From Oscillospiraceae bacterium (GTDB lineage Bacteria; Bacillota; Clostridia; Oscillospirales; Ruminococcaceae), in the NCBI GenBank assembly GCA_004555865.1, contig SFJO01000002.1, positions 90,201-154,200 of the forward strand: a DNA stretch of 64,000 bases, read 5' to 3'. The notes under the pieces were generated by a model. The model was not told the DNA's origin and made no database searches. It worked only from the letters and a program-made list of their open reading frames with translations. Shown here in pieces: positions 52,741 to 55,089 of this stretch (position 1 is the stretch's first letter; each line of letters starts with the position of its first letter). The position numbers and the translations under genes are program-made.

Positions 52741-53532
52741 TCATCCCAGCTCGTTCAGGCCGCTGACGCACAGAATCACAAAAAACCCCAGCAGCAGCAC
52801 CCACCCCAGCACCTGAATCATATAAAAGGTGTCGCTCGGCTCTACCTCGCCCTTCACGTACCAGCTGAGGCTGATGCGATTCAGCGATTCTCCGAACAAA
52901 ATTATCAGCACCGCAAGGCCCAGCACCAGGCAGGCCATCCCATAATACTTCAGGCTGCCCTTCACCACGGTGTCACCGGCGGCGGCGCGGCCCAGCCACC
53001 CGGGGCTGACCCAATCGTCCAGCGCGCGCTCGCCTGTTTCGTAGCTGAAGCCCACATCCGGAATCAGCGCACCGCTTTCGTGCCGCTCGTAGAGCTGGCC
53101 CTGCCCATCCGCAAAGCCCTCAAAAACGTTCTTTTCCTGCCAGGTGATGGTCACCGGCCAGCAGGGCTGGCTTTTCTCCAGCCCCAAGCCCTCTTCGCGC
53201 TGCTCCTCGCGGCCGAGGGTCACCCGGCCCTCGCCGGTTCCGGCCTGGGCAGCGTCCACCCGCACATACACCGTTTCACCGGGTCGATAGTCGCCGTCCA
53301 CCTGCACCGTCACCGGCGTATCGCCGTATACGGTGCCCTGATACAAGCCATCGCCGCGCTGGCGCAGGCTGCCGTTGCCAAAGGCAAGCACCGGCTTGCC
53401 GCCAGCCAGCAGGTAGGCCGCCAAAAACACCGCAGCCAGAGCGGCCGCCAAAATCAGAGCCGCTCTGCGCCCCCACAGAAACTTTTCCCGGGTTGTTTTT
53501 CGGCCGAACTCATCCAGAAACCGTTCGAGCAT
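52741..53532 (-). CDS. Hypothetical membrane protein (1 N-terminal and 2 C-terminal TM helices)
   Basis: ORF trimmed to ATG 53532 (MLERFLDEFGRK), preceded by AAAGGAGGG. TM helices are AALILAAALAAVFLAAYLLAG, MACLVLGLAVLIILF and VLGWVLLLGFFVILCV. The central domain of about 150 aa has no recognised family. A TGGTACAAT extended -10 lies at 53600-53608. Confidence 0.55.
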   Translation of the reverse strand: MLERFLDEFGRKTTREKFLWGRRAALILAAALAAVFLAAYLLAGGKPVLAFGNGSLRQRGDGLYQGTVYGDTPVTVQVDGDYRPGETVYVRVDAAQAGTGEGRVTLGREEQREEGLGLEKSQPCWPVTITWQEKNVFEGFADGQGQLYERHESGALIPDVGFSYETGERALDDWVSPGWLGRAAAGDTVVKGSLKYYGMACLVLGLAVLIILFGESLNRISLSWYVKGEVEPSDTFYMIQVLGWVLLLGFFVILCVSGLNELG

Positions 53533-53607
53533 TCGATAGCCCTCCTTTGCTTTTTTCCGGGTTGCGGCCAGGCCCGACCGAACTGTACGGAACATTTGTA
53601 TTGTACC

Positions 53608-53645
53608 ACAAAAAGGGTGGGTGCCCAACGCGAGCACCCACCCTT
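53608..53645 (-). terminator. Strong intrinsic terminator closing the tandem-module non-coding unit
   Basis: Minus strand has AGGGTGGGTGC-UCGCGUUGG-GCACCCACCCU followed by UUUUGUGG. On the plus strand no T-tract follows, so it is minus-strand specific. Confidence 0.7.
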
Positions 53646-54555
53646 GTGATTCCTAATACATTGGTCTCAAAGCCTCATCTCAGATGTGGAAGTGGTGAAC
53701 GGATGAACATTTCATAGGGTCCACGTTCCTTCTTTTTCTGATTTTGGAATTGATGCAACGTTTTAGCTGTTCATTGGTTTCAAAGCCTCATGGTTTGGAT
53801 TTCCGTATCTCGCGGTGGGTGGATAATTTGCCCATCGTGGCTTCTTACACCGGCCCAAATGCCGCGCGCCTTGGGGAATGCTGCTTAGTACATCGGTTTC
53901 AAAGCCTCATCTCAAAGGTTGGAATTGAACCATCCGTCTCTGTCACGCTGCCGGCCTGCTCCGGCCCAATGTCAGGGGTGGATGTGGGGACGCATCACAA
54001 ATCGCTTCATTCTGCGTCATCCTTTCCTTGGTTTGGTTGGGGATGTTCTTCAGTACATTGGCTGCAATGCCTCTTTGCCATCCGGCTTATCCATGCGCCC
54101 GGTCCGCCGTCGTGCGTTGCGGGTGCGTTTGTTTGGTGCAAACCATTCGGGGTTCTTTGAACCCTCTGTTGTTTCAGCTGTTCATTGGAGTAACCCTTTG
54201 TAGATTTCTGGTTCGTGTGAAACGAGATTTTATGGTTGCTTCCGGCAGCCTTTGCGCCGGGCCGTCAAATCACTTTTCGCTTGGCTCAAAATCTATATTA
54301 AAAGGTTTTTTATCGTTCTCTCCGGCAGTCGACCGGGGTTCTGGTCCGTTTCTTACGGTAAAGCCCTTCCTTGGTCTCTTACAGGATCACATCCTGGGGT
54401 GTGAGGGTACCGTTTATCTGCCGACCCCGGGCTGCCAATGCTGCACGGGTTCTTCAGTCTTTGCCATCGGGATCAAGCTCCTTTCCGACCACCGAGGGGG
54501 TTTGGATTTCGGCATCCCCTTCTGCTTTTTGCTTCGGTGGTGTTCTCTTTTGTTT
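53612..54555 (-). ncRNA. Candidate ~0.95-kb non-coding transcript built from tandem diverged modules (unclassified)
   Basis: Bounded by the TGGAAA-17-TATAAT promoter (54562-54590) and the terminator at 53608-53645. No protein-like ORF occurs in any frame. Repeated conserved cores and many local hairpins are present. The ends are inferred, not measured. Confidence 0.4.
53659..54481. repeat. Tandem array of ~7 diverged 110-170-bp modules sharing a 20-nt core
   Basis: Plus-strand core CATYGGTYTCAAAGCCTCAT starts at 53659, 53772 and 53891 (18-20 of 20 identical). Degenerate copies start at 54056 (CATTGGCTGCAATGCCTCTT), 54183, about 54351 (weak) and 54465 (CATCGGGATCAAGCTCC). Flanks also align: CCGGCCCAA at 53850 and 53961, and GGTTTGGATTTC at 53792 and 54499. 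Confidence 0.65.
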
Positions 54556-54561
54556 GATTTT

Positions 54562-54590
54562 ATTATAGCCAACTCCCGCCTTTGTTTCCA
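54562..54590 (-). promoter_or_regulatory. Candidate sigma70 promoter of the tandem-module unit
   Basis: Minus strand reads TGGAAA-17 nt-TATAAT, with an A/T-rich block immediately upstream (54601-54720 is 37 of 120 G+C). Confidence 0.45.
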
Positions 54591-54623
54591 TTGACAAATT
54601 GCACGTAGTTTGTTGATTGTTTT

Positions 54624-54642
54624 TGTGCAATTGTGTTGCACA
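54624..54642. promoter_or_regulatory. Perfect 7-5-7 palindrome TGTGCAA-TTGTG-TTGCACA (operator/activator-site candidate)
   Basis: Seen directly in the sequence. A third half-site TTGCAC lies at 54599-54604. A related GTGCAA-GGTG-TTGCAC occurs at 63514-63529. Confidence 0.35.
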
Positions 54643-54790
54643 TATGGACAATTGTTTCATTTTTATATTCAAATCAAACGAAATAAAGTTGTTTTTCAAA
54701 TTTACATTGTGGCACGTTCCGGTCAATGGTTTTCCCGTTTCCGGTACTTCACGCTAAAAAATTCCGCTGCATCGATCCAAAGCGGCCAAA

Positions 54791-54858: not shown

Positions 54859-55089
54859 TTACTTCTCCTCGATGCTGTACTCGAAGCCGTACTCGGCCTT
54901 CAGGGCTTCCACCTGATCCTTGGTGTCCTCAATGAAGGTCGGCTCATACACGCTGTTGCCGTTGTGAGCCTTCTTGTAGTCCTCCAGAATCTGGGTCAGC
55001 TTGCCCCAGGCTTCGTCCTGTGTGGCCTGTGCCATCTCCTGGGGGAACTGGATGATGTACTCGCGATGTTTGGGAATGCGTGCTTTCAT
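54859..55089 (-). CDS. Small hypothetical protein (76 aa)
   Basis: Trimmed to ATG 55089 (MKARIPKHREYIIQFPQEMAQATQDEAW), preceded by AAAGGAGA. Protein-like and charged. Last gene of the metG-tatD operon. Confidence 0.55.
   Translation of the reverse strand: MKARIPKHREYIIQFPQEMAQATQDEAWGKLTQILEDYKKAHNGNSVYEPTFIEDTKDQVEALKAEYGFEYSIEEK

Follow-up and report, generated by a model that had tools for sequence, protein, structure and literature searches.

A conserved, abundant RNA gene built of tandem minimal open reading frames in gut Oscillospiraceae, with a possible role in ribosome occupancy

The locus and its transcription unit

The window analysed here is a stretch of 64,000 nucleotides (nt) from an Oscillospiraceae bacterium (assembly GCA_004555865.1, contig SFJO01000002.1, positions 90,201 to 154,200 of the forward strand), which contains on its minus strand an RNA gene made of short repeated modules. 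The neighbouring genes are metG, tatD, a small open reading frame (ORF), a gene for a membrane protein and ftsH. The minus-strand gap between the small ORF, which follows metG-tatD and ends at 54859, and the membrane-protein gene, which starts at 53532, contains no credible ORF. The RNA lies in this gap and carries a leader ORF and five modules, each of them a Shine-Dalgarno (SD)-like stretch, a spacer, a start codon, one or two sense codons and a stop codon (Table 1). The interval under study is best explained as part of an abundant RNA gene that stands alone and encodes no protein of any size; it makes up the 3' two-thirds of that gene.

The transcription unit is delimited by a candidate promoter and an intrinsic terminator, both found by scanning. 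The consensus scan predicts the transcript start near 54556, and the promoter stretch is 100% identical in a sister species (G003). Both arms of the terminator have changed in that species, with the pairing preserved. Plus-strand ORFs across the RNA region were rejected as real genes, since they have no Pfam match and one of them is broken by a 1-nt indel in the sister species. The predicted fold of the whole RNA (z = -2.3, 20 shuffles) was not used as evidence.

Pig-gut runs and other gut or environmental runs contain the RNA stretch. In four metatranscriptome runs from three studies, one contig each, 823-927 nt long and with 0 mismatches, covers the RNA with a word depth of 24-276. The flanking genes have no contigs in the same four assemblies except four pieces of 37-48 nt, with a depth of 3-7 and 3-4 mismatches each. 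The 5' ends of the longest contigs (54537-54546) lie about 10-20 nt from the predicted start, and their 3' ends (53638-53641) lie within the terminator stem. This cover, confined to the promoter-to-terminator unit in the three studies, fits a stable and abundant RNA. Contigs allow only a coarse ranking of expression, and in it the RNA is one of the organism's most abundant assembled transcripts in gut samples. The same runs contain further contigs that match the module cores alone, which points to expression of homologous RNAs by other species in these samples.

Just 5' of the RNA promoter lies an AT-rich block (54599-54720) with TTGCAC/GTGCAA palindromes, largely kept in the sister species, which may be an operator.

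Table 1. Features of the RNA gene, in positions of the window.
Feature	Position	Strand	Details
Whole RNA	53605..54556	-	About 0.95 kb, promoter to intrinsic terminator; from metatranscriptome contigs and conservation
Candidate sigma-70-type promoter	54562..54590	-	TGGAAA, 17 nt, TATAAT; 10/12 matches in the consensus scan
Leader ORF with SD	54414..54484	-	AAAGGAG, 10 nt, AUG 54467-54465; 17 codons, stop ends at 54414
Start-less box of the 5' domain	54369..54378	-	Like the module spacer, then AGG in place of AUG
Module 1	54174..54203	-	Weak SD AGGG; AUG 54185-54183, AAC AGC UGA
Module 2	54050..54073	-	GAGG 54073-54070; AUG 54058-54056, UAC UGA
Module 3	53885..53908	-	GAGG 53908-53905; AUG 53893-53891, UAC UAA
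Module 4	53763..53789	-	GAGG 53789-53786; AUG 53774-53772, AAC AGC UAA
Module 5	53653..53676	-	GAGG 53676-53673; AUG 53661-53659, UAU UAG; directly 5' of the terminator
Intrinsic terminator	53613..53645	-	15-bp stem, then U run (scan)
RNA contigs	53638-54546; 53641-54543; 53641-54537; 53673-54495		One per metatranscriptome assembly

The modules and their conservation in a sister species

The modules had been noticed in an earlier reading of the DNA made without database searches (the sequence-only reading), which quoted six minus-strand copies. Strand reading and frame listing recovered all six at their positions, and five of them do encode Met-Tyr-stop or Met-Asn-Ser-stop, with Tyr as UAU or UAC, Asn-Ser as AAC AGC and all three stop codons in use. 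The common core was described there as GAGG placed 11 nt before AUG, which is true of the four best copies, whereas module 1 has only the weak SD. An overlapping frame, AUG-AGG-CUU-UGA (Met-Arg-Leu-stop), is indeed present in three copies, but in module 4 of the sister species its start has become ACG, and it is absent in other genera. The sixth copy, at 54465, had been taken for a module altered by an insertion; it is instead the leader ORF, of 13-34 codons, that opens the long RNAs in other genera.

The window modules are spaced 113-165 nt apart. Their 20-nt core is confined to the RNA locus in the 2.05-Mb genome, with three copies at one mismatch or fewer and one with four.

The RNA body is 97.0% identical in the sister species. 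In the same comparison the third codon positions of tatD and of the downstream gene reach 87-90%, and the spacer after the terminator 66%, so that the RNA appears to be under purifying selection. The starts and stops of all modules are retained there, those of module 1 included; module 2 is identical, and module 5 has changed from UAU-UAG to UAC-UAA.

An RNA family of gut Oscillospiraceae

A BLAST search with the whole RNA in 40 relatives matched only the sister species. The family was reached through a degenerate module pattern and then through a sequence-only model of 25 modules, run on 151 family genomes, which gave clustered matches in many genera; 20 such loci were retrieved. Homologous RNAs are present in no fewer than 24 further genera of this family (G077, G049, G246, G384 and 20 more), one of them, in G077, with seven modules. 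The alignment of four genera shows homology over the entire RNA, the modules being its best conserved parts; the start-less box of the 5' domain is also one of the few conserved blocks, and a module in the last position before the terminator is found in G077, G049 and G246 as well. A pattern scan of public genomes gave at least 120 stretches, and among the 80 matches listed the titles are nearly all those of Oscillospiraceae, Faecousia, Acutalibacteraceae, Ruminococcus or Clostridia metagenome-assembled genomes from animal and human guts.

With Rfam, no family was found over the window RNA at gathering or permissive thresholds, and the covariance-model search gave no match in six homologous loci. 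A full-text literature search, with term look-ups in candidate papers, did not turn up any account of an RNA family made of tandem minigenes. The RNA is best explained as a member of an undescribed family of gut Oscillospiraceae and neighbouring families.

Constraint on start, frame and stop

The sequence-only reading proposed that selection acts on signals of ribosome engagement with minimal ORFs rather than on a protein, and it left chance as an alternative. To avoid circularity, a scoring matrix was made from only the 17 nt upstream of the start and was applied to 25 homologous loci. There were 132 matches, followed directly by ATG in 79 cases and by GTG in 4. An in-frame stop comes after 0-2 codons in 62 of these 83 start-bearing sites, and after exactly one codon in 51. 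The same 83 sites have 15 stops in frame +1 and 9 in frame +2, and the same matrix, applied as a control to the rest of the source genome, found 4/125. The remaining 21 sites are mostly leader ORFs. At high matrix scores the start codon is present at 34 of 38 sites, some of the exceptions belonging to a start-less class. The 62/83 against 4/125, together with the confinement of the core to the locus, rules out chance.

The layout of start, 0-2 codons and stop is kept in 23 of the 25 homologous loci, which come from different genera, and this favours the proposed selection on minimal ORFs. Three elements of the site vary: the SD, the start codon, and the sense codon together with the stop. The stops among the 62 are UAA (40), UGA (15) and UAG (7), and the sense codon can be UAC, GAA, GAC, AAG, GCA, AAA, UGC or others. 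AUG and GUG interchange, and the SD stretches are different registers of the complement of the anti-SD. Variants with 0 or 2 codons keep the frame, insertions occur in threes, and exact AUG-stop units are found in three relatives. The alignment of orthologous loci, suggested earlier as a check, shows the AUG-stop architecture maintained while SD, start codon, sense codon and stop vary, and the frequent loss of AUG or stop from an otherwise conserved core, which would have spoken against the proposal, is not seen for start-bearing sites. Start-less copies of the site do occur in relatives, and the start codon is therefore not required at each site. Taken together, these comparisons give good support to selection on start, frame and stop, that is, on translation signals.

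Architecture of the family and the leader ORF

The long form of the RNA consists of a leader ORF, 1-8 modules, often some start-less copies, and an intrinsic terminator. Each module begins with an SD-like stretch, either AAAGG, GAGG or UAGGUG. A spacer of some 10 nt follows, whose consensus is U-8 G-7 A-6 N N C-3 C-2 R-1, and then come AUG or GUG, 0-2 codons and a stop. The spacing between modules ranges from 56 to 165 nt across the family. In two genomes (G055 and G146) the modules are repeated in tandem almost without change, with a unit of 56 or about 110 nt, indicating that the arrays grow by duplication; such a recent expansion of copy number is expected if the dosage of sites matters.

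The start-less copies at nine loci (L046, L049, L051, L052, L054, L057, L060, L061 and L152) have a stronger SD (GGAG), and CCA, CCG or CCU at the start position. The G077 locus has three direct repeats, GC-rich and about 60 nt each, in the stretch from the RNA terminator to the metG promoter (L033, 2800-2990).

A short form of the family was found at 31 + 18 clustered loci (L082-L161; e.g., L086 5380-5570 and L124 2540-2850), mostly in Faecousia and other Oscillospiraceae. Its promoter lies directly 5' of a single module (SD, UGAGUCC spacer, AUG UAC UAA), and the members that were read through, of about 140 nt, have an ORF of 8-9 codons, M-(x)-E-P, ending at the terminator stem. The L124 RNA is a longer single-module form (about 300 nt); an rRNA operon on the same strand lies about 1.5 kb downstream of it.

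STAB-SD elements, such as that of cryIIIA of Bacillus thuringiensis, protect transcripts from RNases, and the RNA could in a similar manner be an mRNA for a small leader peptide, with the modules as ribosome landing pads that shield it. A leader ORF behind a good SD opens all the long forms examined, the short form joins one module with a small ORF, and SD copies lacking a start exist, all of which agree with such a role. The leader peptides, however, vary in sequence and length, whereas the modules are the best conserved parts, and protection would need neither a start codon nor an in-frame stop at each site. We regard this explanation as improbable. The leader peptide was also rejected as a conserved small protein, since its alignment shows little conservation of sequence or length apart from an acidic stretch with Pro or Ser after it.

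Genomic neighbourhood

The RNA lies downstream of metG-tatD in the source genome and upstream of metG in five other genera. This linkage to metG, seen in six genera, is absent in 15 of 16 other loci, and it was read as inherited synteny and discarded as a functional link. The genes downstream of the RNA differ in every genus examined (metG, cyclophilin, rpoD, rlmA, carD, cellulase and others), and the RNA is therefore not the leader of one gene.

Only one neighbour recurs, a gene for a small, highly acidic DUF1292 (PF06949) protein, which is divergent from the RNA promoter and immediately upstream of it in 10 of 16 further loci (L065-L080). The single DUF1292 gene of the source genome is on another contig.

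The gene downstream of the RNA in the window (52741-53532) encodes a protein of 263 amino acids with hydrophobic stretches near the N-terminus and the C-terminus, membrane-like, whose only match is a weak, sub-threshold TRAM-like one. It is 92% identical in the sister species and is not linked to the RNA elsewhere.

ToxI-type RNAs carry short tandem repeats of about 36 nt, and a conserved gene for an endoribonuclease follows them. The RNA could be compared with them, as the repeat RNA of a type III toxin-antitoxin system having the 263-amino-acid protein as toxin, or it could be a cis-regulatory leader of that gene, which is on the same strand about 80 nt downstream; the repeats are placed 5' of a terminator, as in ToxI. 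Both possibilities are highly improbable, because the downstream genes are not conserved between genera and the RNA contigs end at the terminator. For a type III system, moreover, the module spacing is 113-165 nt in the window and 56-165 nt in the family instead of about 36 nt, and the downstream protein has no match to a nuclease family.

A possible ribosome-occupancy RNA

The modules are best read as working translation-initiation regions that close after 0-2 sense codons. Ribosomes (30S or 70S) and initiator tRNA would be recruited to the leader ORF and to every module, form at most one peptide bond and terminate on the spot. The output of the RNA would then be the occupancy of the translation machinery, by titration or parking, and neither a peptide nor the control of a neighbouring gene. 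We consider a ribosome-occupancy RNA the best explanation of the data, one that is slightly more probable than not. The sequence-only reading had already proposed that such an RNA titrates or stalls ribosomes, and we likewise infer this from the layout of the modules. In a more specific form, which we put forward only tentatively, the RNA would act as a multivalent ribosome-loading RNA, on whose tandem one-codon ORFs 30S or 70S particles and initiator tRNA are parked or titrated, with occupancy as its only product, the UGAG(U/A)CC spacer tuning the binding and tandem duplication setting the number of sites.

Several observations weigh against this role in translation. The UGAG(U/A)CC spacer is strongly conserved and is unneeded for an ordinary initiation site, and shuffling it leaves the predicted pairing with 16S rRNA unweakened (-11.2 against -10.9, p = 0.48). 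Start-less copies, common in many relatives, share the same UGAGUCC spacer, followed by CCR. UAC is over-represented as sense codon (25 of the 83 start-bearing sites, some leader ORFs included), which plain ribosome parking does not predict. UGG never takes the place of the stop, with only about 1.7 cases expected, so that by this result alone the conserved triplet could be either a stop codon or a U-purine-purine motif. The modules are predicted to be no more accessible than the rest of the RNA (unpaired probability of 0.42 and 0.40, respectively), and the RNA contigs carry no strand information. Finally, we infer ribosome binding itself, as well as what the cell would gain from it, be it titration, storage or protection of the RNA.

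The pairing of the spacer was analysed with the 16S 3' tail of the family, taken from six rRNA loci. In the duplex prediction the GG of the tail is paired with the CC at -3/-2 in 98% of the modules, and the consensus UGA(G)UCC is complementary to 16S GGAUCA with one bulge. According to the same prediction, 23% of ordinary gene starts bind the tail as well as the median module does. An extended pairing between spacer and 16S is not claimed, because shuffled spacers bind equally well, and another ligand may read the spacer.

The modules might accordingly be bound by a protein or a small RNA that acts in trans and recognises UGAG(U/A)CC-R, the RNA being its sponge and the stop secondary. Conservation within the module is highest at positions -8, -7, -6, -3 and -2, the spacer being as conserved as the start codon; an 11-nt motif of spacer plus start is almost confined to the RNA locus in five genomes; and the CCR copies and the shuffled spacers point in the same direction. 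Such a sponge would leave unaccounted for the exchange of AUG and GUG, the in-frame stops after 0-2 codons and the SD variants, which are related to each other only through the anti-SD. It has no conserved partner gene either, since DUF1292 is present in 10/16 loci and does not adjoin the RNA in the source genome, and a search for a partner complementary to the spacer within the RNA found none. We hold this explanation to be unlikely, if less so than the protected peptide mRNA. The module as a mimic of the start region of one gene was also rejected, since the 11-nt motif precedes just one ordinary gene in the five genomes.

One ordinary gene of G120 (L208, around 740-765), for a membrane-anchored protein, has a module-type start region, with a UGAGUCC spacer before AUG.

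CsrB and RsmZ are long non-coding sponge RNAs with many GGA sites in hairpin loops, bound by CsrA. The RNA described here resembles them in having many copies of a short site, whose number varies between species. The module consensus, however, has no GGA, most modules lack it and carry starts and stops in frame instead, and fold predictions give no evident module hairpin.

Comparison with known minigenes

Occupancy by ribosomes has to be weighed against another effect of translating very short ORFs. The bar minigene of phage lambda is a toxic two-codon minigene inside a phage transcript that depends on a limiting tRNA. In the manner of bar or CreT, translation of the modules could slow down growth, either by sequestering a tRNA in the form of peptidyl-tRNA or by overloading peptidyl-tRNA hydrolase. 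Their layout (SD, AUG, one codon, stop) is that of a two-codon minigene, UAC dominates as sense codon, and the source genome has a single tRNA-Tyr gene. Natural RNAs that act through translation have been published: the axe-txe minigene of Enterococcus plasmids acts by being translated (PMC8708949), and CreT is a small stand-alone RNA toxin with a strong SD and a very short ORF, which acts through its own translation (PMC8501985).

The differences from these toxins are considerable. In CreT the rare codons AUA or AGA stand in succession, and CreA, acting with Cas proteins, keeps it repressed (PMC8501985); the RNA described here shares its small size, its SD and its very short ORFs, and has no rare codons and a high expression. 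UAC, AAC and AGC are mid-rank codons and preferred synonyms in the source genome (12-16 per thousand for UAC and AAC), where the rare ones are AGA, AUA and CUA, and this counts against a trap of rare tRNAs of the CreT and bar type. The sense codon is also free to differ between modules and genera, and the high abundance is unlike that of a repressed toxin. Among the neighbours scanned in the window and at other loci there are no cas genes, and neither a CRISPR nor an antitoxin partner was found among those examined. A toxin-like minigene RNA is in our opinion about as doubtful as the peptide mRNA.

The modules of the window do have the layout of bar and axe-txe, i.e., SD, AUG, 1-2 sense codons and stop. 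As far as they have been described, these are single units, embedded in a phage or operon transcript and reliant on a tRNA in limiting supply, and their effect comes from translation itself and not from a product. The RNA described here, by contrast, is dedicated, abundant and chromosomal, has 1-8 units with common codons and is found family-wide.

A parallel to a role of the modules in ribosome occupancy is found in the Start-Stop sites of E. coli, where toeprinting showed ribosome binding and which are thought to act via occupancy (10.1101/520783). They also have an SD-like site and a start codon, followed at once by a stop (10.1101/520783). They are single, out-of-frame sites within genes without any sense codon, whereas the modules are arrayed in a separate RNA and mostly have one; each of the five window modules has 1 or 2.

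Single minigenes and Start-Stop sites were thus already known, and the new aspect is a conserved, highly expressed RNA gene built of them. Being abundant and unannotated, this RNA would otherwise be misread in metatranscriptomes and in surveys of small ORFs. The bacterial family that carries it dominates animal and human guts, and the RNA offers a natural system to study the purpose of loading ribosomes without protein synthesis. If the proposed function is true, a multivalent loading RNA would be a regulator or a store of translation capacity, of a kind undescribed for bacteria.
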